Shown here one piece after another: positions 5,927 through 38,040 of a DNA stretch of 64,000 bases. The notes under the pieces were generated by a model that ran no database searches, was not told where the DNA came from, and saw only the letters and a list, made by a program, of their open reading frames with translations. How positions within the stretch are numbered: the stretch's first letter is position 1; the number at the start of each line of letters is the position of its first letter. This DNA comes from Escherichia coli. Its GTDB lineage: Bacteria; Pseudomonadota; Gammaproteobacteria; Enterobacterales; Enterobacteriaceae. The stretch is taken from the NCBI RefSeq assembly GCF_048403405.1, contig NZ_CP183129.1; one strand, written 5' to 3'. Made by a program: the position numbers and the translations under genes.

Positions 5927-8173
5927 ATGCTCACTCGCCTGCGCGAAATAGTCGAAAAGGTAGCCAGCGCACCACGCCTGAATGAGGCGTTAAATATTCT
6001 GGTTACCGACATCTGTCTTGCGATGGATACCGAGGTCTGTTCGGTTTACCTTGCCGATCATGATCGACGTTGTTACTACCTGATGGCGACCCGGGGGCTG
6101 AAAAAACCACGCGGTCGCACTGTAACGCTCGCGTTTGATGAAGGGATCGTCGGCCTGGTTGGCAGGCTGGCGGAACCGATAAACCTTGCAGATGCGCAAA
6201 AGCACCCCAGCTTCAAATACATCCCCTCCGTAAAAGAAGAACGTTTCCGCGCGTTTTTAGGCGTACCAATTATTCAACGTCGCCAGTTGCTTGGTGTACT
6301 GGTGGTACAGCAACGAGAGTTGCGCCAGTATGACGAAAGTGAAGAATCCTTCCTGGTGACGCTTGCCACCCAGATGGCTGCGATTCTTTCTCAGTCGCAG
6401 TTGACTGCCTTGTTTGGGCAATATCGCCAGACGCGAATCCGTGCATTACCGGCAGCGCCTGGTGTAGCGATTGCCGAAGGCTGGCAGGATGCCACGTTAC
6501 CTTTAATGGAACAGGTGTATCAGGCATCAACGCTGGATCCAGCTCTGGAACGCGAACGACTGACCGGGGCGCTGGAAGAAGCGGCAAACGAGTTTCGCCG
6601 CTACAGCAAACGCTTTGCCGCCGGTGCACAAAAAGAAACGGCGGCTATTTTCGATCTTTACTCACACCTGCTTTCGGATACCCGGCTGCGGCGCGAATTG
6701 TTTGCCGAGGTTGATAAAGGCTCGGTGGCAGAGTGGGCGGTAAAAACGGTCATTGAAAAATTTGCCGAACAGTTTGCCGCGCTAAGCGATAACTATCTCA
6801 AAGAGCGGGCTGGCGATTTACGTGCGCTGGGTCAGCGATTGCTGTTTCATCTTGATGACGCTAATCAAGGGCCGAACGCCTGGCCGGAACGTTTCATTCT
6901 GGTGGCAGATGAACTGTCAGCGACAACGCTTGCAGAGCTGCCCCAGGATCGCTTAGTCGGTGTTGTCGTGCGAGATGGCGCAGCCAACTCCCATGCTGCG
7001 ATCATGGTACGTGCGCTGGGGATCCCTACCGTAATGGGCGCGGATATTCAGCCTTCGGTGCTGCATCGTCGGACGTTGATCGTCGATGGTTATCGCGGTG
7101 AATTGCTGGTCGATCCGGAGCCGGTACTGCTGCAAGAATATCAGCGGCTAATTAGTGAAGAGATTGAGCTTAGCCGTCTGGCGGAAGATGACGTCAATTT
7201 ACCCGCCCAGTTAAAAAGCGGCGAGCGCATTAAAGTCATGCTCAATGCCGGTTTAAGCCCGGAACATGAAGAAAAACTGGGCAGCCGTATTGATGGCATC
7301 GGTCTTTATCGCACTGAAATCCCATTCATGCTGCAAAGTGGTTTTCCGTCGGAAGAAGAACAGGTGGCGCAGTATCAGGGGATGCTGCAAATGTTCAATG
7401 ATAAACCCGTCACCTTGCGTACGCTGGATGTCGGAGCAGATAAGCAGCTGCCTTACATGCCGATCAGCGAAGAGAATCCATGCCTGGGTTGGCGTGGGAT
7501 TCGCATTACGCTCGATCAGCCGGAGATCTTCTTGATCCAGGTGCGGGCGATGCTGCGTGCTAATGCCGCTACGGGCAACCTGAATATTCTGTTGCCGATG
7601 GTCACCAGCCTCGATGAAGTTGACGAAGCACGCCGCCTGATTGAACGTGCAGGACGTGAAGTCGAGGAGATGATCGGTTACGAAATTCCCAAACCACGTA
7701 TCGGCATCATGCTGGAAGTGCCGTCAATGGTATTTATGCTGCCGCATCTGGCAAAGCGGGTCGATTTTATCTCTGTTGGCACCAACGATCTGACTCAATA
7801 CATCCTGGCCGTTGATCGCAATAATACCCGGGTGGCGAACATTTATGACAGTCTTCATCCTGCAATGTTACGAGCTCTGGCGATGATCGCCCGGGAAGCG
7901 GAAATACATGGAATCGATCTCCGTTTGTGCGGTGAAATGGCGGGCGATCCCATGTGCGTGGCAATCCTCATTGGGCTTGGGTATCGCCATCTGTCTATGA
8001 ACGGACGTTCTGTAGCGCGCGTAAAATACCTGCTGCGGCGCATTGATTTTGCCGAAGCAGAAAATCTTGCGCAGCGTAGTCTGGAAGCGCAACTGGCGAC
8101 CGAAGTTCGCCATCAGGTTGCAGCCTTTATGGAGCGTCGCGGCATGGGCGGGCTGATTCGCGGAGGGTTATAG
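5927..8173 (+). CDS. ptsP: phosphoenolpyruvate-protein phosphotransferase EI-Ntr (GAF domain + PEP-utilising enzyme)
   Basis: 748-aa ORF; N-terminal GAF-like region followed by Enzyme I domains; synteny with rppH. Confidence 0.9.
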   Translation: MLTRLREIVEKVASAPRLNEALNILVTDICLAMDTEVCSVYLADHDRRCYYLMATRGLKKPRGRTVTLAFDEGIVGLVGRLAEPINLADAQKHPSFKYIPSVKEERFRAFLGVPIIQRRQLLGVLVVQQRELRQYDESEESFLVTLATQMAAILSQSQLTALFGQYRQTRIRALPAAPGVAIAEGWQDATLPLMEQVYQASTLDPALERERLTGALEEAANEFRRYSKRFAAGAQKETAAIFDLYSHLLSDTRLRRELFAEVDKGSVAEWAVKTVIEKFAEQFAALSDNYLKERAGDLRALGQRLLFHLDDANQGPNAWPERFILVADELSATTLAELPQDRLVGVVVRDGAANSHAAIMVRALGIPTVMGADIQPSVLHRRTLIVDGYRGELLVDPEPVLLQEYQRLISEEIELSRLAEDDVNLPAQLKSGERIKVMLNAGLSPEHEEKLGSRIDGIGLYRTEIPFMLQSGFPSEEEQVAQYQGMLQMFNDKPVTLRTLDVGADKQLPYMPISEENPCLGWRGIRITLDQPEIFLIQVRAMLRANAATGNLNILLPMVTSLDEVDEARRLIERAGREVEEMIGYEIPKPRIGIMLEVPSMVFMLPHLAKRVDFISVGTNDLTQYILAVDRNNTRVANIYDSLHPAMLRALAMIAREAEIHGIDLRLCGEMAGDPMCVAILIGLGYRHLSMNGRSVARVKYLLRRIDFAEAENLAQRSLEAQLATEVRHQVAAFMERRGMGGLIRGGL

Positions 8174-25350: not shown

Positions 25351-26604
25351 ATGTCAGGATCCAACACTGCAATCAGCCGTCGTCGTTTACTGCAAGGCGC
25401 GGGTGCCATGTGGCTATTGAGCGTAAGTCAGGTCAGTCTGGCTGCGGTCAGCCAGGTCGTGGCGGTGCGCGTCTGGCCTGCGTCCAGCTACACCCGCGTG
25501 ACGGTAGAATCAAATCGTCAGCTGAAATATAAGCAGTTCGCGTTGAGTAACCCGGAACGCGTGGTGGTGGATATCGAAGATGTAAACCTGAACTCGGTAC
25601 TCAAGGGGATGGCGGCACAAATTCGTGCAGACGACCCGTTCATCAAGTCGGCGCGCGTCGGGCAATTTGACCCGCAGACCGTACGCATGGTTTTTGAATT
25701 AAAGCAAAACGTAAAACCGCAGCTGTTTGCCCTTGCGCCGGTCGCTGGGTTTAAAGAGCGTCTGGTGATGGACCTCTATCCGGCCAATGCACAGGATATG
25801 CAGGACCCGCTGCTGGCGCTGCTGGAGGATTACAACAAAGGCGACCTCGAAAAGCAGGTGCCGCCAGCACAAAGTGGTCCACAACCGGGTAAAGCAGGGC
25901 GCGATCGTCCGATTGTCATTATGCTTGACCCTGGCCACGGTGGCGAAGACTCCGGTGCGGTGGGGAAATACAAAACGCGCGAAAAAGACGTGGTATTGCA
26001 AATAGCTCGCCGTCTGCGCTCTCTGATCGAGAAAGAGGGCAATATGAAGGTGTACATGACGCGCAATGAAGACATCTTCATTCCGTTGCAAGTGCGCGTA
26101 GCAAAAGCCCAGAAACAGCGTGCTGACCTGTTTGTCTCTATCCATGCCGACGCCTTTACCAGCCGTCAGCCGAGCGGTTCCTCTGTGTTTGCGCTCTCAA
26201 CCAAAGGTGCAACCAGTACTGCGGCAAAATATCTGGCACAAACCCAGAACGCCTCGGACTTGATTGGTGGCGTGAGCAAAAGCGGTGACCGCTATGTCGA
26301 CCACACCATGTTCGATATGGTGCAGTCGCTGACCATTGCCGACAGCCTGAAGTTTGGTAAAGCGGTGCTGAATAAGCTCGGTAAAATCAACAAGCTGCAT
26401 AAAAATCAGGTTGAACAGGCCGGGTTTGCCGTACTAAAGGCACCAGATATTCCCTCCATTCTGGTCGAAACGGCGTTTATCAGTAACGTTGAGGAAGAGC
26501 GTAAACTGAAAACGGCGACCTTCCAGCAGGAAGTTGCGGAGTCTATTCTTGCGGGGATTAAAGCGTATTTTGCCGATGGGGCGACGCTGGCGAGAAGGGG
26601 ATGA
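25351..26604 (+). CDS. amiC: N-acetylmuramoyl-L-alanine amidase with Tat signal
   Basis: ATG at 25351 gives [19 protein letters not shown] (twin-arginine signal); ORF-track start 25261 is an extension; amidase_3 domain at the C-terminus. Confidence 0.9.
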
Positions 26605-26777
26605 TGTTTTTATTTATTCAATGAATTTATATTTCGTTGAATAGATAACATTTTCATGAATATTAGATGCTGGTTTTGTGACTGATGTCGAATATTTGAA
26701 TGTCGGCTTGAAAAATAAGCCGACCATCTCTTTAATTAAACACAATTCCGTGTAATGTATACACATTAGTTAATCAT

Positions 26778-26850
26778 CTTGTAACTGTTAAATCAGGCAA
26801 GGCAATGTTTGAAGTAATTATTACTTCTGACGTGCCTTGCCTTTTTTTTT
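26778..26850 (+). promoter_or_regulatory. RAT (ribonucleic antiterminator) element overlapping an intrinsic terminator in the leader of the antiterminator gene
   Basis: ttgtaactgttaaatcaggcaagg resembles the sac/bgl/lic RAT consensus; its 3' half (aggcaaggca, 26795-26804) pairs perfectly with tgccttgcct (26833-26842), which is followed by T8. Confidence 0.7.
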
Positions 26851-26861
26851 GGAGTCATGGA

Positions 26862-27686
26862 ATGATCATCGAAAAAGTCATGAACAATAATTGTGTACAG
26901 GCATCGATGAATGGACAGGAGGTTATCATTTCTGGACCTGGCGTCGGTTACAACAAAAAATATGGAATGTCGGTCCCTGAGCATCCGGCTAACCGGATTT
27001 TTTATGTCAGAAATGAACAAAAAAACAAACTCTATAAATTGATTGAACATGTAGATATTGAGTATGTGTTTGTTGCCGAAAAAATAGTGCAATATGCGGA
27101 GAAAAATCTCGAAAAAAATCTCAATCCATCGCTACTATTGATTCTTGCGGATCACATTTCGAATGCAATATCCCGAGTCGCTTCAGGTATACAAATTAAT
27201 AATGTTTTCCTTGATGAAATCAAAGCGTTGTACAAAGCAGAATATGCAATAAGCCGGGATGCATTAACCATCATCAATGAGCAATTTAGCTTTCAACTTC
27301 CGGATGATGAGATTGGTTTTATTGCATTGCATATTTTAAATAACTATGAAAATTCATCTGATTATGAATCGGTACGGATTATTGAATTATCTCAAAAAAT
27401 CACGGAGATTATCGAGGGTATTTATAACCGAAAGGTGGACAGAAGTTCATTTAACTATTCAAGATTTATGATGCACCTTAAGTATTTTTCTAATCGAGTT
27501 TTATGTAATGAAAAGATAAAACAGAAAGATATTGGTGACATCTATGAGCAGTTTCTTGAGAAAGACATCCTGTTACAGCGCGCAATTCATGAAATTGAAA
27601 GGTATCTGTATGCCACTTTTAAATATGAATTAATTTTAGAAGAAAAACTATATCTCTCAATTCGTACCAAAGTATTAATGGACTAA
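26862..27686 (+). CDS. BglG/LicT/SacY-family transcription antiterminator (CAT RNA-binding domain + two PRDs)
   Basis: ATG at 26862 preceded by ggag; N-terminus MIIEKVMNNNCV... aligns to LicT/BglG (MKIAKILNNNVV); the ORF-track start 26805 lies inside the leader terminator. Confidence 0.85.
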   Translation: MIIEKVMNNNCVQASMNGQEVIISGPGVGYNKKYGMSVPEHPANRIFYVRNEQKNKLYKLIEHVDIEYVFVAEKIVQYAEKNLEKNLNPSLLLILADHISNAISRVASGIQINNVFLDEIKALYKAEYAISRDALTIINEQFSFQLPDDEIGFIALHILNNYENSSDYESVRIIELSQKITEIIEGIYNRKVDRSSFNYSRFMMHLKYFSNRVLCNEKIKQKDIGDIYEQFLEKDILLQRAIHEIERYLYATFKYELILEEKLYLSIRTKVLMD

Positions 27687-27717
27687 TTATATATAACATT
27701 TATATGAGATAACCCAC

Positions 27718-29298
27718 ATGAAACAAAAGAAAGCCTGGAGTTTTTTTCAGAGCCTGGGGAAGGCATTTATGTATCCCATTGCTCTGCTAAGTGTATGTGG
27801 CATGATGCTAGGGCTAGGAAGTGGTTTAGCCAGTGATGATATGGCAAAGTTAATTCCATTTCTGGCTATTCCAATAATTAAAACCATACTTGATTTCATT
27901 GTTAGCCTTGGTTTGTTTGCCTTTGTTAATTTACCTGTATTGTTTGCGATAGCAATTCCCTTAGGATTATTAAAAGAGAAAGAGGATAAAGCCTATGGCG
28001 CTTTTTCTGGCTTAATTGGTTTTATGGCGATGCATCTGGGAACGAACTTTTATCTTAAACAGCACGACTTATTGGTCGCTGCTGACCAAATGTCGACACA
28101 TGGGCAAACCATCATTCTGGGGATCCAGTCCTACAATACCAGCGTGTTAGGGGGAATTGTTGCTGGGTTATTAGTCGCCAGCATGTATAAAAAGATCGTT
28201 AATTTACGCATTCCAGAATCATTAGGTTTTTATAGCGGCCCACGTCTGGTGCCTATCATTACACTGATTGTGATGAGTGGATTTGGTCTGATCATTCCTT
28301 TTATCTGGCCGCCGTTTTTCAATCTCTTCATGCTCATTGGCCACTGGATATCAACTTCCGGTCCTGTTGGTTATTTCTTCTATGCAGTTGCCGAACGTGT
28401 GACGATTCCTTTTGGCTTAAACCATCTGGTGACGTCAGTGTTCCGCTTTACGCCAATCGGCGGTTCGGCTGTGATTGGCGGCGAAGAGTATTACGGCACC
28501 CTGAACATGTTTATGGCGTACGTCAAAGAGAATGCGGTCATTCCGCTGGATTTGGCGGGGAAAATGGAGCAGGGCAAACTGATGATTCAGTACGGTCTGG
28601 CTGGTGCTGCACTGGCCATGTATCGCACTGCTCATGCTCAAAACAGAAAGGCTATCAAAGCATTGCTTATTTCCGGTGTGCTTACGGTTATTATTGGTGG
28701 CGTCAGCGAACCGATTGAATTTCTGTTCTTATTTGTCAGTCCGCTGCTGTTTGTCTTCCATGCCTTTATGAATGGATTCGCCAACATGGTCTTGCCATAT
28801 ATGGGCGTGAAGATGGGATTTACTGGCGATCTGATTCAATTTATTAGCTTTGGCGTATTGCGTGGCACAAGAACAGGTTGGCCGATCGCGGTGTGTGTCG
28901 AAGTGGCCTATTTCTTCATTTATTACTTTGTGTTCCGTTGGACCATTCTCAAATTTAACCTGATGACCGTAGGACGTGAAGAGTCCAGTCCTGTCACGCT
29001 GAACGCTCACGAAGAAACTGCAATAGCTAATATCCCAGCTTATGATAAATCAGAGTTGCAGGCAGCGGAGCAAATGGTTAAGGCTCTGGGTGGAAAAGAA
29101 AATATTAAATCACTGGATAATTGTGTCACTCGTTTGCGTTTAACTATCGCAGATATGGGATTGATAGATGAGGCTGCAATTAAAAGTGCCGGAGGGATTG
29201 CGGTTGTGAAACTTGATCAAAATACCTTACAAGTCATTATCGGCACTAAAGTCATCGCCCTGCGTCGGGATATGGATAACTACATGGGGATACGCTGA
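27718..29298 (+). CDS. PTS permease EIICB, glucose/maltose (MalX/PtsG-like) family; no EIIA domain
   Basis: 526-aa polytopic ORF; C-terminal EIIB domain with phospho-cysteine motif NCVTRLRL. Confidence 0.85.
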   Translation: MKQKKAWSFFQSLGKAFMYPIALLSVCGMMLGLGSGLASDDMAKLIPFLAIPIIKTILDFIVSLGLFAFVNLPVLFAIAIPLGLLKEKEDKAYGAFSGLIGFMAMHLGTNFYLKQHDLLVAADQMSTHGQTIILGIQSYNTSVLGGIVAGLLVASMYKKIVNLRIPESLGFYSGPRLVPIITLIVMSGFGLIIPFIWPPFFNLFMLIGHWISTSGPVGYFFYAVAERVTIPFGLNHLVTSVFRFTPIGGSAVIGGEEYYGTLNMFMAYVKENAVIPLDLAGKMEQGKLMIQYGLAGAALAMYRTAHAQNRKAIKALLISGVLTVIIGGVSEPIEFLFLFVSPLLFVFHAFMNGFANMVLPYMGVKMGFTGDLIQFISFGVLRGTRTGWPIAVCVEVAYFFIYYFVFRWTILKFNLMTVGREESSPVTLNAHEETAIANIPAYDKSELQAAEQMVKALGGKENIKSLDNCVTRLRLTIADMGLIDEAAIKSAGGIAVVKLDQNTLQVIIGTKVIALRRDMDNYMGIR

Positions 29299-30482
29299 TG
29301 AATGTTTTTAATACCCCTATCTCCCGTAAAGGAACATATTGCACTCAATGGGACTTTTGTGAGGACAGATTTGGTGTAAAAGATGTATTACCATTTTCTA
29401 TTTCAGATATGGATCTTCCGATACCGGAAGCTATCATCAGGGCATTAAAAAAACGCCTGGAACACCCGATTTTAGGGTACAGCCGTTGGCAGCATGATGA
29501 TTATCTGAATGCGATAGTCAATTGGTATCATCAACAATATAAAACTGAAATAAAACCAGAATGGATCACCTATAGCCCAAGTGTGATGTATTCAATTGCT
29601 AAGGCAATAGAGTTATTAACATTGAATGGAGATAACATTCTCATTTTTACGCCTGTTTATAACGCATTTTTTGATGTAATTAAACAAAGTGGTCGAAATA
29701 TGCTAACAACCTCTTTGAATAAAGAAAATGAGAGAGGCTACGCTATCAACTGGCAAGATTTTGAGCTAAAAATTAAAAGCGCGAAGATGGTGTTATTGTG
29801 TAATCCTCATAACCCGACAGGAACCGTCTGGTCGGAAGAAGATCTCTTCAAAATCGCTGCAAGCTGCGCAAAACAAAAAATCTGGCTATGTTCAGATGAA
29901 ATTCACAGTGATTTTGTTTTTAACCATGGTTTCACGTCCGCGTTAAAAATAAAAAATGACAAAGTAGTGGTGTTAAATTCGATTTCGAAAACATTTAATG
30001 TTCCTGCACTAACAGGATCATATATGATATCCGCTGACCAGGATTTTAATGATAAGTTTAGAACGATATCAAGATATCGCGATTTTGTAAACTCACCATC
30101 TATATTGAATGTGATTGCTACCATTGTTGCTTATAACGAATGTGAAGAATGGTTAAAGTCGTTAAAGGATCATATTGCCTCTAACATTCAATTTACCCAG
30201 CAGTATTTGAATGAAAATATTCCAGAATTGATCGTGAGGTCCGCTGAGGGTTGCTATTTTTCGTGGATAGATTGCTCGGCCATTGGCTATCCCTTTGATA
30301 AATTTTACCGACGATTAATTGATGAAGGGAAAGTGGGTATTATGGCGGGGTATGTTTATGGTACGGAAGGTGAGGGCTATCTGCGTCTGAATCTGGCCTG
30401 CGGTCGAGAAAAATTATATATGGGGCTTGTGCGCCTTGCGAGTGTAATTAAAAATATTAATCAGGAAAAAGAAAATGAATAA
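29298..30482 (+). CDS. MalY/PatB-like PLP-dependent C-S lyase (aminotransferase class I/II fold)
   Basis: 394 aa; N-terminus GTYCTQWDF...DVLPFSISDMD closely parallels MalY; PLP-lysine motif SISKTFN; start overlaps the PTS stop. Confidence 0.8.
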   Translation: MNVFNTPISRKGTYCTQWDFCEDRFGVKDVLPFSISDMDLPIPEAIIRALKKRLEHPILGYSRWQHDDYLNAIVNWYHQQYKTEIKPEWITYSPSVMYSIAKAIELLTLNGDNILIFTPVYNAFFDVIKQSGRNMLTTSLNKENERGYAINWQDFELKIKSAKMVLLCNPHNPTGTVWSEEDLFKIAASCAKQKIWLCSDEIHSDFVFNHGFTSALKIKNDKVVVLNSISKTFNVPALTGSYMISADQDFNDKFRTISRYRDFVNSPSILNVIATIVAYNECEEWLKSLKDHIASNIQFTQQYLNENIPELIVRSAEGCYFSWIDCSAIGYPFDKFYRRLIDEGKVGIMAGYVYGTEGEGYLRLNLACGREKLYMGLVRLASVIKNINQEKENE

Positions 30483-31071
30483 CTCGGAACTTATACATCT
30501 TATTAAACATTTTATGCGTAACGAACATAAGGCCGTTGAAGAGGTTATTGATTCCCCACTTTCTGAAGTCGCTAATTTAATTAAAGTATTACAATCTTGT
30601 CAGGGTAAAGTTGTTTTTATTGGTGTTGGTAAGTCCGGTATTATTGCCAGAAAACTCGCAGCAACATTTGCCAGTACCGGAACTCCCTCGTTTTTTGTTC
30701 ACGGTACGGAAGCGGTACACGGCGACCTTGGAATGGTGGCGAAAGACGATGTTGTTATTCTTATTTCAAACAGTGGTGAGACGGCGGAAATCCTGGCGAC
30801 ACTGCCTAGTCTGAAAAGAATGGGTAATTATTTGATCTCTTTTACCCGCAGTCATCACTCATCGCTTGCGATAAGTTGTGATTTATCTGTTGAAATCCCC
30901 GTCAAAAGTGAGGCGGATAATTTAGGTTTAGCACCGTCATGCTCGTCTACTGTTGTTCTGGTTGTTGGTGATGCGGTGGCGCTTGCACTCTCCGAATTGA
31001 AAAAATTTACTCGTGCCGATTTCGGCTTATATCATCCAGGAGGTGCACTCGGCATTAAAGCAAATTCATAA
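30475..31071 (+). CDS. SIS-domain-only sugar-phosphate isomerase-like protein (resembles the N-terminal half of KdsD/GutQ arabinose-5-phosphate isomerases, no CBS domains)
   Basis: 198 aa; motifs GVGKSGIIARKLAATFASTGTPSFFVHGTEAVHGDLGM, SNSGET and HPGGALG; start overlaps the MalY-like stop by 8 nt. Confidence 0.8.
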   Translation: MNNSELIHLIKHFMRNEHKAVEEVIDSPLSEVANLIKVLQSCQGKVVFIGVGKSGIIARKLAATFASTGTPSFFVHGTEAVHGDLGMVAKDDVVILISNSGETAEILATLPSLKRMGNYLISFTRSHHSSLAISCDLSVEIPVKSEADNLGLAPSCSSTVVLVVGDAVALALSELKKFTRADFGLYHPGGALGIKANS

Positions 31072-31142
31072 TTTCAAAATATAAATACAGTAACCGGTCA
31101 CGCCATCTTTTGGGGTGGCGTTCATTGAAGTGAGTGTCAGCT

Positions 31143-32090
31143 ATGAAAAATGTTCTGGTCACCGTCCCCAGCTTTTCAGCACGCTGTGTTTCCGCCAGCA
31201 AGTTGCTAAGAGAGAATAATTTTAATCTTATTATTAAGAATAATGTGGAGCATCTGCTTAAATCAGAATCCACTGCATTACGAGAATCTATTTGCGCGGT
31301 CATCGCCGGAAAAGATTGTTATCAGGCGGATACGCTATCATTGCTGCCTGGTGTGAAAATAATATCGAGATTCGGGACGGGGATAGACAATATTGATCTT
31401 CGTGCGGCACAGCAATCCGGTATTGTAGTCAAAAATGCGGTTGGGATTAATTCAAATGCGGTTGCGGAATTTATCATTGGACTTATCTTTGCGAGCATGA
31501 GAAATATTCCTGGCAGCTATCATGCGATGCAAAATGGCTACTGGGTTGAGTCGCATGGCTGTGAATTACAAGGGAAACGGATTGGCCTGGTTGGCTACGG
31601 TAATATAGGTAAAACCCTGGCGAAAAGGTTGTCTGGTTTTGATGTTGAGCTTTTAGCTTTTGACAAACAACCCGATTTTCAGGCCGCTGGCAAAGATGGA
31701 GTTCAGTTTGTATCAATTGAAGATATCTTTATGCAGTCGCATGTCATCATTGTTCTTTTACCTTTTTCTCCTGAGCTGGAGAACTTCATTAGTCATAAAT
31801 ATTTGTCAATGATGCGCAATGGTGCTCTGATCATCAATGCCGCAAGGGGAAAGTTGCTGGATGAGGGCGCTTTACTTCAGGTGATTGAAGAACGAAATGT
31901 GTTTGCGGCGCTGGATGTGTTTAGCTCTGAACCGTTGGCGCAATTTAGCCCACTGCTACATGCCAAAAATATCATTACAACGCCGCATATTGCGGCCGCC
32001 ACCGTTGAGTCATACCAGCAAACCGGGATACACGTTGCCCAGTCAATAATTGATTACTTCGCAGGAAGGGAGATAAAAAACGTGTTGTGA
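31143..32090 (+). CDS. D-isomer-specific 2-hydroxyacid dehydrogenase, NAD-binding
   Basis: ATG at 31143 preceded by gaagtgag (ORF-track 31134 is a GTG upstream); Rossmann motif GLVGYGNIGKTLAKRL. Confidence 0.8.
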   Translation: MKNVLVTVPSFSARCVSASKLLRENNFNLIIKNNVEHLLKSESTALRESICAVIAGKDCYQADTLSLLPGVKIISRFGTGIDNIDLRAAQQSGIVVKNAVGINSNAVAEFIIGLIFASMRNIPGSYHAMQNGYWVESHGCELQGKRIGLVGYGNIGKTLAKRLSGFDVELLAFDKQPDFQAAGKDGVQFVSIEDIFMQSHVIIVLLPFSPELENFISHKYLSMMRNGALIINAARGKLLDEGALLQVIEERNVFAALDVFSSEPLAQFSPLLHAKNIITTPHIAAATVESYQQTGIHVAQSIIDYFAGREIKNVL

Positions 32091-32116
32091 GTTCAGCGAA
32101 CGAAGATTTTAAATAC

Positions 32117-32149
32117 AAAAAAACCGCAATTTGTGGAACACATTGCGGT
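32117..32149 (-). terminator. intrinsic terminator downstream of the tRNA-fMet operon (minus strand)
   Basis: On the minus strand, stem ccgcaat/attgcgg followed by T7; lies just 3' of the last tRNA copy. Confidence 0.55.
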
Positions 32150-32168
32150 TTATCAGCATTCTAAGTAT

Positions 32169-32245
<77 letters not shown>

Positions 32246-32279
32246 TCACCGTACTGCTTTTACTTCATCAAATTTTGAT

Positions 32280-32356
<77 letters not shown>

Positions 32357-32389
32357 TCACCGTACTGCTTTACTTCATCAAATTTTAAT

Positions 32390-32466
<77 letters not shown>

Positions 32467-32674
32467 TCCGTGGATGCGCACTATACTCCGCTCGCGTTTT
32501 CATGCAACCTTTTTTTTAACCCGATCACGGATTCGGCATGATTTTGAACAAAAACAAATCACTAAAGCCTATTTTTTGTGCAAAATTTGCGTCAGGGAGA
32601 GGCTGCTCATTTCATTAAACGCGGTGGTTTGTTATCTTCGTTGCGCCTTATTTTTTAACCTGAAGAAGAGAACA

Positions 32675-33772
32675 ATGAAAGGACGTTGGGTAAAGTACCT
32701 TCTTATGGGCACGGTTGTGGCAATGCTTGCCGCCTGCTCTTCCAAACCAACCGATCGCGGACAGCAATATAAAGACGGGAAATTTACCCAGCCTTTCTCT
32801 CTGGTGAACCAGCCAGATGCCGTTGGCGCGCCGATTAACGCCGGTGATTTTGCCGAGCAAATTAATCATATTCGTAATTCGTCACCGCGTCTGTATGGCA
32901 ACCAGAGTAATGTTTATAACGCGGTGCAAGAGTGGCTGCGCGCAGGCGGTGATACCCGCAATATGCGCCAGTTCGGCATTGATGCCTGGCAGATGGAAGG
33001 TGCCGACAACTATGGTAACGTGCAGTTTACAGGCTATTACACGCCGGTAATTCAGGCGCGCCATACCCGCCAGGGCGAGTTCCAGTATCCGATTTACCGT
33101 ATGCCGCCAAAACGTGGTCGTTTGCCGTCTCGTGCGGAGATCTACGCGGGGGCATTGAGCGATAAATACATCCTCGCTTACAGCAACTCCCTGATGGATA
33201 ACTTCATTATGGATGTGCAGGGTAGTGGGTATATCGACTTTGGTGATGGCAGTCCGCTTAACTTTTTCAGCTATGCAGGGAAAAACGGTCATGCCTATCG
33301 CAGCATTGGTAAGGTGCTGATCGACCGTGGCGAAGTGAAAAAAGAAGATATGTCGATGCAGGCGATTCGTCACTGGGGCGAAACACACAGTGAAGCCGAG
33401 GTTCGCGAGCTGCTGGAACAGAACCCGTCTTTCGTCTTCTTTAAACCGCAATCTTTTGCACCGGTGAAAGGGGCAAGTGCGGTGCCGCTGGTTGGCCGTG
33501 CTTCTGTTGCCTCCGATCGTTCAATTATTCCGCCAGGTACTACCTTGCTGGCAGAAGTGCCGCTGCTGGATAATAACGGCAAATTTAACGGTCAGTACGA
33601 ATTGCGTCTGATGGTGGCGCTGGATGTCGGTGGCGCAATCAAAGGCCAACACTTCGATATCTATCAAGGGATCGGGCCGGAAGCCGGGCACCGCGCAGGT
33701 TGGTACAACCACTATGGACGTGTCTGGGTGCTGAAAACGGCTCCGGGCGCAGGTAACGTCTTTAGCGGCTGA
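32675..33772 (+). CDS. mltA: membrane-bound lytic murein transglycosylase A (lipoprotein)
   Basis: ATG at 32675 gives MKGRWVKYLLMGTVVAMLAACSS (lipobox), 365 aa; the ORF-track start 32393 is an artefact reading through the tRNA genes. Confidence 0.9.
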   Translation: MKGRWVKYLLMGTVVAMLAACSSKPTDRGQQYKDGKFTQPFSLVNQPDAVGAPINAGDFAEQINHIRNSSPRLYGNQSNVYNAVQEWLRAGGDTRNMRQFGIDAWQMEGADNYGNVQFTGYYTPVIQARHTRQGEFQYPIYRMPPKRGRLPSRAEIYAGALSDKYILAYSNSLMDNFIMDVQGSGYIDFGDGSPLNFFSYAGKNGHAYRSIGKVLIDRGEVKKEDMSMQAIRHWGETHSEAEVRELLEQNPSFVFFKPQSFAPVKGASAVPLVGRASVASDRSIIPPGTTLLAEVPLLDNNGKFNGQYELRLMVALDVGGAIKGQHFDIYQGIGPEAGHRAGWYNHYGRVWVLKTAPGAGNVFSG

Positions 33773-36353: not shown

Positions 36354-36541
36354 GGTACTCCTCGGCTTGATGAACCGATCGTGACGCAAAATTCACTTTG
36401 ATACAAGGAGAGTGCTAACCATCAGAATTATCTGGATATCCTGGCGAAGCCGCGTAAGTAACATATGCTGAATAGTGTTAGGCGTTAATTTTAGCCTGTT
36501 AATCAATACTATTAAGATTTATTAATCGCTTTAAGGAGAAG

Positions 36542-36772
36542 ATGATGAAAAAGACTGCCGCAATTATTTCTGCCTGTATGCTGACTTTTGCCCTGAGCGC
36601 CTGTTCCGGTTCGAACTATGTGATGCACACCAATGACGGACGTACCATCGTCTCTGACGGCAAACCACAGACTGATAACGATACCGGTATGATTTCGTAT
36701 AAAGACGCTAATGGCAACAAACAGCAGATCAACCGTACTGACGTGAAAGAGATGGTCGAACTGGATCAGTAA
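36542..36772 (+). CDS. ygdI: small lipoprotein, DUF903 family (paralog of ygdR)
   Basis: 76-aa ORF with lipobox (LSAC); clearly similar to the product of 2872..3090. Confidence 0.8.
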
Positions 36773-36788
36773 TTCGCGATCGCAAGGT

Positions 36789-36994
36789 AAAAAAAAGCAC
36801 CGCAATTAGGCGGTGCTACATTAATCACTATGGACAGACAGGGTAAATGTACAGGAAGTGAAAAAAGGTAGCTTTGCTACCATGGTCTGAATCGCAGACC
36901 AATTGCAAACACAACAACACAACATCACAACCGTAAGCCAAAAGTTCACCAGAACACGCATTCCGATAAAACTTTTCGTTCCGGCTCAGGAAGT
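36789..36994 (-). ncRNA. gcvB: GcvB small regulatory RNA (GT-rich target-binding region, intrinsic terminator)
   Basis: Reverse complement reads ACTTCCTGAGCCGGAACG...GTTGTGATGTTGTGTTGTTGTGTTTGCAATTGG...GCACCGCCTAATTGCGGTGCTTTTTTTT, which matches gcvB as I remember it; divergent from gcvA. Confidence 0.85.
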
Positions 36995-37122
36995 GCCGCC
37001 ACTATAGGTATTTGCTGGTAGAAGCTCAACGGACAATTTATAATGGCTCAGATTAAAAAAACTAATAGGTTACACAGTGTGATCTAATTGTTAAATTCAT
37101 TTAACATCAAAGTTTAAAAGCC

Positions 37123-38040
37123 ATGTCTAAACGATTACCACCGCTAAATGCCTTACGAGTTTTTGATGCCGCAGCACGCCATTTAAGTTTCACTCGCGCA
37201 GCAGAAGAGCTTTTTGTGACCCAGGCCGCAGTAAGTCATCAAATCAAGTCTCTTGAGGATTTTCTGGGGCTAAAACTGTTCCGCCGCCGTAATCGTTCAC
37301 TCCTGCTGACCGAGGAAGGTCAAAGCTATTTCCTCGATATCAAAGAGATATTTTCGCAATTAACCGAAGCGACGCGTAAACTCCAGGCCCGTAGCGCCAA
37401 GGGGGCGTTGACGGTCAGTTTACTCCCCAGTTTCGCCATTCATTGGTTGGTTCCGCGACTTTCCAGCTTTAATTCAGCTTATCCGGGAATTGACGTTCGA
37501 ATCCAGGCGGTTGATCGTCAGGAAGATAAGCTGGCGGATGATGTTGATGTGGCGATATTTTATGGTCGGGGCAACTGGCCGGGGCTACGGGTGGAAAAAC
37601 TTTACGCCGAATATTTATTGCCGGTGTGTTCGCCGCTACTGCTGACTGGCGAAAAACCCTTGAAGACCCCGGAAGATCTGGCTAAACATACGTTATTACA
37701 TGATGCGTCACGCCGTGACTGGCAGACATATACTCGCCAATTGGGGTTAAATCATATCAACGTTCAGCAAGGGCCAATTTTTAGCCATAGCGCCATGGTG
37801 CTGCAAGCGGCTATTCACGGGCAGGGAGTGGCGCTGGCAAATAACGTGATGGCGCAATCTGAAATCGAGGCCGGACGTCTTGTTTGCCCGTTTAATGATG
37901 TTCTGGTCAGTAAAAATGCTTTTTATCTGGTTTGTCATGACAGTCAGGCAGAACTGGGTAAAATAGCCGCCTTTCGTCAATGGATCCTGGCGAAAGCCGC
38001 TGCTGAACAAGAAAAATTCCGCTTTCGTTATGAACAATAA
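37123..38040 (+). CDS. gcvA: LysR-family transcriptional regulator of the glycine cleavage system
   Basis: 305-aa ORF with N-terminal helix-turn-helix (LSFTRAAEELFVTQAAVSHQIKSLE). Confidence 0.9.
   Translation: MSKRLPPLNALRVFDAAARHLSFTRAAEELFVTQAAVSHQIKSLEDFLGLKLFRRRNRSLLLTEEGQSYFLDIKEIFSQLTEATRKLQARSAKGALTVSLLPSFAIHWLVPRLSSFNSAYPGIDVRIQAVDRQEDKLADDVDVAIFYGRGNWPGLRVEKLYAEYLLPVCSPLLLTGEKPLKTPEDLAKHTLLHDASRRDWQTYTRQLGLNHINVQQGPIFSHSAMVLQAAIHGQGVALANNVMAQSEIEAGRLVCPFNDVLVSKNAFYLVCHDSQAELGKIAAFRQWILAKAAAEQEKFRFRYEQ

Follow-up and report, generated by a model that had tools for sequence, protein, structure and literature searches.

The 5.5-kb islet between amiC and metV, in the window (the whole stretch of Escherichia coli DNA that was analysed, 64,000 nucleotides), is very probably a Firmicute-type PTS catabolic operon, acquired horizontally and regulating its own expression, that represents the T6SS-less form of the c3405-c3410 operon of PAI-metV. 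Judged by sequence identity, it is the already described sugar-uptake operon c3405-c3410 of CFT073 and is therefore real but not new. New here are the RAT (ribonucleic antiterminator)/terminator pair, the conservation of a four-gene core, the link to Firmicutes, the distribution in E. coli, and the separateness from the T6SS island. In CFT073, amiC is followed directly by these five genes in unchanged order, with 94.3% nucleotide identity and 87 to 98.5% amino acid identity, which bears out the resemblance proposed in the original prediction; these genes were named as part of PAI-CFT073-metV by Bryant et al. 2009 (PMC2831201). The operon adjoins metV in the window, whereas in CFT073 a 27.1-kb T6SS island lies between the two. 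That island has its own flanking repeats of ~40 bp, including the tRNA end, and is a separate module; the present locus is the short form of the operon island. The two alleles differ most in a divergent patch at ~28850-30600, where identity was 84 to 92% and the dS of patB was 0.51. The link of c3405-c3410 to urinary-tract fitness is said to go back to work by Lloyd et al. in 2009 (J Bacteriol 191:3469) and Mosberg et al. in 2011 (J Bacteriol 193:2981).

The features of the locus were as follows.

26606..26861, + strand: left boundary of the islet and leader, beginning 1 base past the end of K-12 homology (amiC stop, 26602-26604)
26778..26801, + strand: putative RAT, CTTGTAACTGTTAAATCAGGCAAG, from pattern search and conservation
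26795..26851, + strand: predicted intrinsic leader terminator, a long GC-rich hairpin (26795-26842) followed by a U9 run
26862..27686, + strand: BglG/LicT-family PRD antiterminator, 274 aa (NCBIfam LicT, 2.6e-68)
27718..29298, + strand: PTS EIICB of the glucose family, MalX-like, 526 aa (TIGR02004, PTS-IIBC-malX, 4.9e-162)
29298..30482, + strand: PatB/MalY-family PLP-dependent C-S beta-lyase, 394 aa (TIGR04350, 363.7 bits)
30475..31071, + strand: SIS-only sugar-phosphate isomerase of the c3406 type, 198 aa (SIS part of KpsF/GutQ/KdsD alone)
31143..32090, + strand: D-isomer-specific 2-hydroxyacid dehydrogenase, PGDH-like, 315 aa (NCBIfam PGDH, 3.7e-63)
32116..32166, - strand: islet-specific spacer with the metZWV terminator hairpin, forming the right boundary (K-12 homology from 32167)
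32169..32245, - strand: metV, tRNA-fMet (ARAGORN; Rfam tRNA)

The exact limits of the islet are 26606-32166 (5561 bp), including its own metZWV terminator at 32116-32149; these replace the limits of 26605-32116 originally proposed. Five co-oriented ORFs on the + strand fill the interval from amiC to the 3' end of metV, in agreement with the arrangement, the gene families and the tRNA-proximal position that had been predicted. The left flank consists of recD, argA and amiC and the right flank includes mltA; three tRNA-fMet genes occupy 32169-32466 on the - strand, and the 3' end of metV adjoins the islet as a landmark outside it. The alignment to K-12 stops at 26605 and picks up again at 32167. 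K-12 lacks the five genes and has only an unrelated 70-bp spacer from the amiC stop to the metV 3' end, the short spacer expected by the original prediction, so that the insertion amounts to replacement of the whole K-12 spacer. The K-12 terminator at metV is likewise unrelated to that of the islet, which is an inverted repeat (I1), ACCGCAAT...ATTGCGGT, with a T-run on the - strand. The predicted AT-richness was confirmed by a GC content of 0.400 versus 0.518 in the remainder of the window (z = -7.5), where the lowest value among 190 other 5.56-kb segments was 0.484. GC3 was 0.33 to 0.46 for the islet genes versus 0.55 to 0.61 for flanking genes. The islet is thus compositionally foreign.

An AT-rich block abutting the 3' end of a tRNA gene would fit a classical genomic island brought in at the metV 3' end by an integrase, and the same cassette in Citrobacter adjoins the 3' end of tRNA-Asp. 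This origin is nevertheless improbable. As predicted, neither an integrase nor a transposase was found among the islet ORFs, and the search of the islet boundaries, including for the tRNA end on the amiC side, gave no direct repeat, the K-12 spacer having been wholly replaced. What a scar at this site looks like is shown by the ~40-bp tRNA-end repeat of the CFT073 T6SS module. Furthermore, the four-gene core in Enterobacter has no adjoining tRNA.

The antiterminator comprises a CAT RNA-binding domain, PRD1 and PRD2, and was matched to the LicT PRD structures 1TLV and 1H99 and the CAT-PRD1 structure 6TWR. Its His98, His157 and His205 are invariant, and an Arg takes the place of LicT His269 in Escherichia, Atlantibacter and Citrobacter. 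An upstream ORF start at 26805 was rejected, as it lies inside the leader terminator, and the start was assigned to ATG 26862. The EIICB contains the EIIB phosphorylation motif DNCVTRLRL with an invariant Cys469; no EIIA gene was found within the islet. The score of the lyase exceeds the 340-bit cut-off of the TIGR04350 PatB model, its nearest structure is MalY (1D2F, 2.7e-86), and its PLP lysine motif SxSKxFN is conserved. The unity of the operon is reflected in overlapping start and stop codons, by 1 nt between EIICB and patB (29298) and by 8 nt between patB and the SIS gene (30475-30482). The dehydrogenase, with its start at 31143 as in the PGAP annotation, also matched a glyoxylate reductase profile (1.9e-48) and PDB 1WWK (2.3e-49). 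It is an accessory fifth gene, confined to the versions of Escherichia, Atlantibacter and Citrobacter and missing from the Enterobacter and Firmicute loci.

The SIS protein matched the KdsD profile only at positions ~37-201 of 328, has no CBS domains, and showed 97% identity to PDB 5UQI/5VHU across 198/198 residues. By these matches it is assigned to the arabinose-5-phosphate isomerase type without CBS domains. Proteins of the c3406 type have reportedly been published as arabinose-5-phosphate/ribulose-5-phosphate isomerases. The block could be viewed as a virulence biosynthesis helper in which the SIS protein supplies arabinose-5-phosphate for KDO and thence LPS or group 2 capsule; its SIS domain is nearest to KdsD/KpsF/GutQ, and a review cites Mosberg 2011 in this way. 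This role is considered highly unlikely, as the gene lies inside an antiterminator-controlled PTS operon and Gram-positive Firmicutes, which do not produce KDO, retain the four-gene core. In addition, a c3406 single deletion was reportedly not attenuated in the 2011 Mosberg study.

The antiterminator control claimed by the original prediction is supported by the 256-bp leader, in which a RAT/terminator pair was identified. The pattern TTGTNACTG-N4-7-CAGGCAA occurred once in the 64-kb window, with a chance expectation of 0. The predicted RAT has a lower stem of CUUG/CAAG and an upper stem of CUG/CAG, and the terminator shares its 5' arm with the 3' half of the RAT; from this overlap, the two structures are predicted to be mutually exclusive and could not form simultaneously. 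The terminator had an MFE of -30.2 kcal/mol (z = -4.9), and 0/200 shuffles folded as well. Its consensus fold across 10 loci (Enterobacteriaceae and Enterococcus termitis) contained 18 pairs, 8 of which were changed on both sides, while the upper stem of the RAT showed one compensatory change, CUG/CAG to CUA/UAG, in Enterobacter and Enterococcus. The RAT precedes the operon in every Enterobacteriaceae locus, in E. termitis and in Terrisporobacter; in C. difficile and Clostridium KNHs214 it separates the antiterminator gene from the EIICB gene, and a scan upstream of the Massilicoli operon gave none. The pair is kept at nearly all orthologous loci. Also in the leader are a hairpin at 26702-26724 that may be the amiC terminator, a TGTGA half-site at ~26676 that is a possible CRP site, and TATACA at 26758-26763, a putative conserved -10-like hexamer; in Atlantibacter and Citrobacter, too, a TATAC/TATAA hexamer precedes the RAT by ~20 nt.

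Of 5426 complete E. coli genomes, 1689 (31%) carried the islet and 3734 had the K-12-type empty junction. The pangenome comparison thus makes it accessory, and of the "old, fixed islet" originally envisaged only the age was upheld. The age is supported because the dS of the islet equals that of the flanks (window versus CFT073, 0.06 to 0.08 for the SIS and dehydrogenase genes and 0.07 to 0.11 for the flanks) and because E. whittamii and Atlantibacter hermannii carry the islet at the same site. A cryptic or decaying remnant without present function, comparable to the silenced bgl operon, would be in keeping with AT-rich DNA being a typical target of H-NS silencing and with the accessible literature giving no growth phenotype. 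The block is very doubtful as such a remnant, given that 1686 of the 1689 carriers align over the full length (at least 80% of 5.5 kb), that dN/dS is 0.05 to 0.29 across the genes, and that compensatory changes accompany the conservation of the regulatory RNA element. These ratios point to purifying selection on all five genes.

Among ~100,000 species, the order antiterminator-EIICB-PatB-SIS was seen in 13/13 loci found, which span Enterobacteriaceae, Peptostreptococcaceae, Clostridium, Enterococcus and Erysipelotrichales and include C. difficile (CD3027-30), Terrisporobacter and E. termitis. The EIICB is 62 to 71% identical to its Firmicute orthologues (69 to 71% for C. difficile and E. termitis) versus 42% to K-12 MalX. 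Because of this closer relationship and the retained gene order, horizontal acquisition from Firmicutes is suggested. This origin is also favored by the GC content of the islet (40%), which lies between that of the host (52%) and those of the Firmicute loci, mostly 27 to 37% (Massilicoli, 45%), and by the EIIA-Glc gene that the Firmicute versions have of their own.

In the proposed mechanism, transcription would start in the leader and stop by default at the terminator (26795-26851). When the cognate sugar is transported, the EIICB would cease phosphorylating PRD1 of the antiterminator, which would then bind the RAT (26778-26801), block the terminator and let transcription continue through its own gene and the four that follow, giving positive autoregulation. 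We infer this phosphorylation logic by analogy with the LicT/BglG paradigm. The EIICB would import and phosphorylate the sugar with the general EIIA-Glc (Crr), a use proposed because the islet has no EIIA gene. The lyase and the SIS isomerase would act on the phospho-sugar, with the pentose-phosphate pathway as the likely exit, and the dehydrogenase would be an enterobacterial add-on, probably for a 2-oxo or 2-hydroxy acid by-product. Crr use, the sequence in which the enzymes act and the exit are likewise deduced. The exit is favored by a split transketolase and a phosphohexomutase downstream of the Terrisporobacter operon, and by SIS-only homologues in Mammaliicoccus beside RbsD, a PfkB kinase, an MFS transporter and a LacI regulator. 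A product yielding arabinose-5-phosphate is not straightforward, because hexopyranosides are what EIIs of the glucose family usually phosphorylate. The accessible literature, including a 2026 genome paper listing the same five ORFs, contains no sugar assignment for the operon.

It is possible, though clearly less probable than the above, that the operon imports a plain monosaccharide (e.g., D-arabinose or a glucose/mannose analogue), which the SIS protein feeds as sugar-phosphate into central metabolism. PatB/MalY would then be no pathway enzyme but a regulatory or moonlighting partner (compare MalY-MalT) or a link to cysteine or sulfur. This is consistent with the EIICB-PatB pair standing alone in K-12 and F. 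varium and having a sugar-phosphate isomerase (PMI) as its neighbor in V. vulnificus, with the cysteine desulfhydrase activity of C. difficile MalY in vitro, and with the Mammaliicoccus SIS-only homologue lying in a pentose-type kinase cluster without a PLP enzyme. Against it, PatB is kept in 13/13 orthologous operons, with genes overlapping or closely spaced, and patB is under purifying selection (dN/dS 0.13). MalT, the known regulatory target, is not known from Firmicutes. PatB/MalY does occur beside a glucose-family EIICB where a lyase step is not obviously needed, as in K-12 malX-malY and V. vulnificus EIICB-PatB-PMI, an observation that counts against the catabolic mechanism; because of such pairs, the lyase may be regulatory rather than catabolic.

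Of the known systems, C. difficile CD3027-CD3030/31 shares the gene order and RAT/terminator control of the islet, with identities of 69% (EIICB), 50% (PatB) and 52% (SIS). It differs in having its own EIIA-Glc gene, no dehydrogenase, and three tandem RAT/terminator units in the antiterminator-EIICB gap rather than upstream of the antiterminator. Papers on this orthologue name it just "putative glucose-maltose PTS" and treat MalY as a cysteine desulfhydrase. B. subtilis LicT and E. coli BglG resemble the islet regulator in having CAT and two PRDs, with a cognate EII gene alongside, and in that a RAT consensus overlaps a terminator. Their EII is of the beta-glucoside type whereas the islet permease is MalX-like, and the islet has no phospho-glycosidase gene and just one leader terminator, which precedes the regulator gene. 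Since the second PRD2 histidine, LicT His269, is replaced by Arg, HPr control may also differ from that of LicT. K-12 malX-malY (MalI regulon) similarly places a MalY/PatB C-S lyase gene after a glucose-family EIICB gene (42% identity for EIICB, 36% for the lyase), but is controlled by the LacI-type repressor MalI instead of an antiterminator and has neither a SIS nor a dehydrogenase gene. Finally, KdsD, GutQ and KpsF have a SIS catalytic domain homologous to that of the islet protein (PDB 2XHZ, 3.7e-41), but at ~320 to 330 aa they are longer than its 198 aa, which lack the tandem CBS domains, and they are found in an LPS, capsule or glucitol context rather than in a PTS operon.

The region between amiC and metV was found to be occupied by five co-oriented + strand ORFs and essentially nothing besides. 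These were assigned from NCBIfam models as follows.

26862-27686, + strand, BglG/LicT-type antiterminator (LicT model, 2.6e-68, covering residues 1-268)
27718-29298, + strand, EIICB (maltose/glucose EIICB model, 4.9e-162)
29298-30482, + strand, PLP enzyme, PatB C-S lyase (363.7 bits, above the 340-bit cut-off)
30475-31071, + strand, SIS protein (KdsD/KpsF/GutQ models, SIS part only)
31143-32090, + strand, PGDH/2-hydroxyacid dehydrogenase (3.7e-63)

The left flank is recD-argA-amiC, while the right flank consists of three tRNA-fMet genes on the - strand followed by mltA. The gene families and the placement between amiC and the tRNA-fMet cluster given in the original prediction were therefore borne out by both the ORFs and the NCBIfam assignments. 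The boundaries were deduced from alignment to K-12 MG1655, which ends at window position 26605, one base beyond the amiC stop codon, and restarts at the metV 3' end, at 32167. This sets the islet limits at 26606-32166 (5561 bp). The short K-12 spacer of the original prediction was found to be 70 bp in MG1655; the islet genes are missing there, and it carries two small terminators, neither of which is related to the islet sequence. The metZWV terminator at 32116-32149 belongs to the islet itself.

The expected AT-richness relative to both flanks was also observed. The GC content of the islet is 0.400 compared to 0.518 in the remaining window (z = -7.5), the minimum of any other 5.56-kb stretch of the window being 0.484, and GC3 is likewise lower, at 0.33-0.46 for the islet genes versus 0.55-0.61 for the flanking genes. 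A second, smaller dip (0.44) was seen at 36500-37500 in the ygdI-gcvA intergenic region and is probably ordinary regulatory or sRNA DNA. The islet adjoins a tRNA 3' end, is atypical in composition and is variably present among strains, which are features of genomic islands. As predicted, no integrase or transposase was found among the ORFs of the islet, and no direct repeat was found at its two ends when both boundaries were compared. An integrase-mediated, tRNA-targeted island was rejected on the absence of an integrase and of a tRNA-end repeat at the distal boundary.

The suggested match to c3405-c3410 of E. coli CFT073 proved correct. The CFT073 locus (L002, 20258-25487) is collinear with the islet, encoding an antiterminator, EIICB, a MalY-like protein, a SIS-only arabinose-5-phosphate isomerase (API) and a PGDH-like dehydrogenase directly after amiC, and the position of the islet between amiC and metZWV matches that of PAI-metV. 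Nucleotide identity was 94.3% over 100% of the query, and the proteins were 87-98.5% identical. The c3405-c3410 genes have been named as a metabolic gene set within PAI-CFT073-metV (PMC2831201), and a 2026 paper on strain BEN2908 places these five ORFs in 'GR19 tRNA-Met..amiC' but assigns them no substrate. Since this match holds, the islet is already known and is catalogued as PAI-metV c3405-10. Across its full length, the SIS protein shares 97% identity with PDB 5UQI/5VHU.

Megablast against 5426 complete E. coli genomes located the islet in 1689, and 3734 have a K-12-type empty junction. As the two states together cover 5423 genomes, the locus is deduced to be essentially biallelic and the islet to be accessory, not fixed. 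The frequency of the empty junction also led us to reject the islet as a core segment lost in K-12 alone. Identity to the islet was at least 99% in 122 carriers and 90-95% in 1566, the latter including CFT073. One of the 1691 matching places was on a plasmid, and the islet of strain UTME-14 is interrupted by an IS2. In strain HS-02 (4.5 Mb) only the SIS and dehydrogenase segment was matched, at 75% identity and with no annotation beneath. Some E. coli/Shigella records (P0122, P0124-P0126, P0128, P0129) contain a single ORF of 550-592 aa fusing the PatB and SIS domains. Each of these is a singleton cluster, and the fusions probably arose by loss of the stop codon or by a frameshift where the two genes are closely packed, with a hint of functional coupling between the two proteins.

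The islet directly adjoins metV, as in the window, in 595 carriers, and in about 1094 there is an insertion in between. For CFT073 the insertion is a 27.1-kb T6SS island bounded by a direct repeat of ~40 bp, TGCGGTTTGTCAGCATTCTAATAAATTGGTTGCGGGGGCC, located at ~25527-25580 of L002 and ~7266-7318 of L032, a further CFT073 locus. No integrase gene was found in this T6SS island. The repeat combines spacer of the islet type with the final 14 nt of metV. Because of this structure, PAI-metV is a composite of two modules acquired separately, the five-gene islet having already been on the chromosome when the T6SS module entered at the tRNA end. The window has no T6SS genes between the dehydrogenase gene and metV, so that the linked T6SS of the 32-kb PAI-metV is missing here.

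The age of the islet was assessed from synonymous divergence between the window and CFT073. The flanking genes recD, argA and amiC gave dS values of 0.07-0.11, and the SIS (0.08) and dehydrogenase (0.06) genes were at the same level; higher values were obtained for the antiterminator (0.22), EIICB (0.17) and especially patB (0.51). The dN/dS ratio was 0.05-0.29 throughout. Compared with the divergence of these E. coli lineages the islet is old, and purifying selection acts on it. Of the original description as an "old, fixed islet", the age is upheld by the flank-level dS of the SIS and dehydrogenase genes, but fixation is contradicted by its presence in only 1689 genomes. The underlying observation was otherwise confirmed, and its interpretation apart from "fixed" was supported. 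A sliding comparison confined the excess divergence to one patch at ~28850-30600, which takes in the whole of patB together with the EIICB gene's 3' end. This patch is equally far (84-92%) from CFT073, E. whittamii and a third E. coli allele (E69), while the islet outside it is 95-99% identical to CFT073. Judged from these identities, the pattern suggests that the patch of the window allele was imported by recombination from an unsampled relative.

A ribonucleic antiterminator (RAT), CTTGTAACTGTTAAATCAGGCAAG, was located in the leader at 26778-26801. This is the single occurrence of the RAT consensus pattern in the 64-kb window, none being expected by chance. The 3' half of the RAT doubles as the 5' arm of a long hairpin (26795-26842) that runs into U9. 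Folding gave this terminator hairpin a dG of -30.2 kcal/mol (z = -4.9). A simple terminator scan overlooked it because its apical part is larger than the 8-nt loop limit of the scan. The Rfam search of 26400-32700 (E <= 1) returned only the three tRNAs, the RAT being matched by no curated family. The real start of the antiterminator gene was assigned to ATG 26862, which has GGAG upstream; the ORF-finder start at 26805 falls inside the terminator.

The RAT/terminator pair is present at nearly all orthologous loci. It lies 5' of the antiterminator gene in Enterobacteriaceae, E. termitis and Terrisporobacter, the last two having a second unit between the antiterminator and EIICB genes. The same intergenic region holds the RAT in Clostridium KNHs214 and three tandem RAT/terminator units in C. 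difficile (~100 nt each; L025, strain CD160, 6674-6960). The sole RAT match in Massilicoli is on the opposite strand before a divergent EIIA gene. When 10 leaders were aligned, changes on both sides were seen in 8 of the 18 terminator pairs, and the RAT upper stem showed a switch from CUG/CAG to CUA/UAG.

The regulator itself has a CAT domain and two PRDs, matching PDB 6TWR (CAT-PRD1) and 1TLV (PRD1-PRD2), and Pfam CAT_RBD and PRD are recorded on its orthologues. His98 and His157 of PRD1 and His205 of PRD2 are invariant. At residue 268 (window ~27663-27665), which corresponds to the second PRD2 site His269 of LicT, Escherichia, Atlantibacter and Citrobacter have Arg, while Enterobacter and every Firmicute orthologue have His. 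By analogy, the phosphorylation logic presumably follows the LicT/BglG paradigm. Because of this Arg, HPr-dependent activation may be altered in the Escherichia/Atlantibacter/Citrobacter clade.

The distribution outside E. coli was surveyed by scanning one genome each of ~100,000 species with an EIICB alignment, and only 13 loci were obtained. Six were from Enterobacteriaceae (E. coli, E. whittamii, Atlantibacter hermannii, two Citrobacter species and Enterobacter sp. ENT03) and seven from Firmicutes (three C. difficile clusters, Clostridium sp. KNHs214, Terrisporobacter mayombei, Massilicoli timonensis and Enterococcus termitis). The order antiterminator-EIICB-PatB-SIS was kept in all 13. The EIICB shares 69-71% identity with its C. 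difficile and E. termitis counterparts but only 42% with K-12 MalX. The dehydrogenase gene is restricted to the Escherichia, Atlantibacter and Citrobacter loci, and an EIIA-Glc gene is added in the Firmicute loci checked (C. difficile, Clostridium KNHs214, Massilicoli and Terrisporobacter); Terrisporobacter has in addition a split transketolase and a phosphohexomutase. The Atlantibacter cassette is at the amiC-metV site of E. coli, and the four-gene core of Enterobacter lies between nfo and fruBKA. In Citrobacter, ~55 bp separate the five-gene cassette from the 3' terminus of a tRNA-Asp gene (11433-11509 in L021 and 11434-11510 in L023) next to dnaQ, a second tRNA-adjacent site again lacking an integrase. 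The simplest reading is that a Firmicute operon was transferred into Enterobacteriaceae and gained the dehydrogenase, with later changes of site without a visible mobility gene.

SIS-only homologues were also found in Lactiplantibacillus, Companilactobacillus and Mammaliicoccus. Their neighborhoods show no synteny with the islet, and the SIS gene alone is therefore no marker of the operon. In Mammaliicoccus lentus (L008 and L009, 7354-11854) the SIS gene (52% identical) is accompanied by genes for an RbsD/FucU mutarotase, a LacI regulator, a PfkB kinase and an MFS transporter. The arrangement resembles a kinase-dependent route for a pentose (possibly D-arabinose) that ends in arabinose-5-phosphate isomerization.

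The islet is proposed to be a sugar-inducible PTS catabolic operon whose product would exit via arabinose-5-phosphate/ribulose-5-phosphate. A pentose-type exit is supported by the transketolase neighbor in Terrisporobacter and by the pentose-kinase context of the SIS-only homologues in Mammaliicoccus. The EIICB contains the EIIB cysteine motif DNCVTRLRL. Since the islet has no gene for an EIIA partner, we infer that it would have to use Crr, the general EIIA-Glc of the host, which is consistent with the EIIA-Glc gene carried by the Firmicute versions. The API activity of c3406 has reportedly been measured, together with enzyme kinetics, and the gene set is said to have an in vivo fitness phenotype in urinary-tract colonization.

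The PLP enzyme is a genuine member of the PatB/MalY family with a conserved PLP lysine motif, and may cleave an amino-acid-derived aglycone off the phospho-sugar. Another possibility, pointed to by the EIICB-PatB pairs of K-12 and of V. vulnificus (where PMI follows), is that PatB serves as a partner in regulation or sulfur metabolism. For the C. difficile orthologue (CD3027-CD3030), the literature gives only a putative glucose-maltose PTS, and malY of this species is reported to be essential, to act as a cysteine desulfhydrase in vitro and to be induced more than any other gene in biofilm. No sugar is named in the accessible literature for c3405-c3410 or for MalY/MalX/SIS/antiterminator combinations, in keeping with the earlier view that the substrate could not be inferred from the sequence. 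The phylum-spanning core could conceivably encode an undescribed route, though we consider this improbable: a PatB beta-lyase, rather than a glycosidase, would strip a Cys/Ser-derived aglycone from a PTS-phosphorylated sugar conjugate, and the sugar-phosphate would enter the pentose-phosphate pathway via the CBS-less API. If true, both the urinary-tract fitness effect that has been reported and the strong biofilm induction of the C. difficile orthologue would be explained by a glycosyl-amino-acid nutrient from host or diet.

Little is added as discovery, as the islet had been catalogued and the structure of the isomerase solved (PDB). The refinements are modest and comprise the exact boundaries, the RAT/terminator switch with its covariation, the four-gene core shared with Firmicutes, the separation of the islet from the T6SS module, the recombinant patB patch and the population frequencies. 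Taking the functional unit as a four-gene Firmicute-type operon also present in C. difficile sharpens the substrate question, and a screen for the inducer could use the well-defined switch itself as its reporter. Identifying the sugar would tie a nutrient to both E. coli extraintestinal fitness and C. difficile physiology.

The islet can also be compared to other known systems. It resembles BglG/LicT-controlled PTS operons in its CAT plus two-PRD regulator and in a RAT that partly overlaps the intrinsic terminator of the leader. Of the four phosphorylatable histidines of the LicT type, two per PRD, three are kept and the fourth is Arg here. The SIS protein (198 aa, matching positions 37-201 of the 328-position KdsD profile) differs from KdsD, GutQ and KpsF in lacking their tandem CBS pair, and belongs to the CBS-less c3406 type. 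Like malX-malY of K-12, the islet has a glucose-family EIICB gene immediately before a PatB/MalY lyase gene, but its EIICB and lyase are only 42% and 36% identical to the K-12 pair, respectively, and the islet pair is therefore a paralogous module rather than the same genes.
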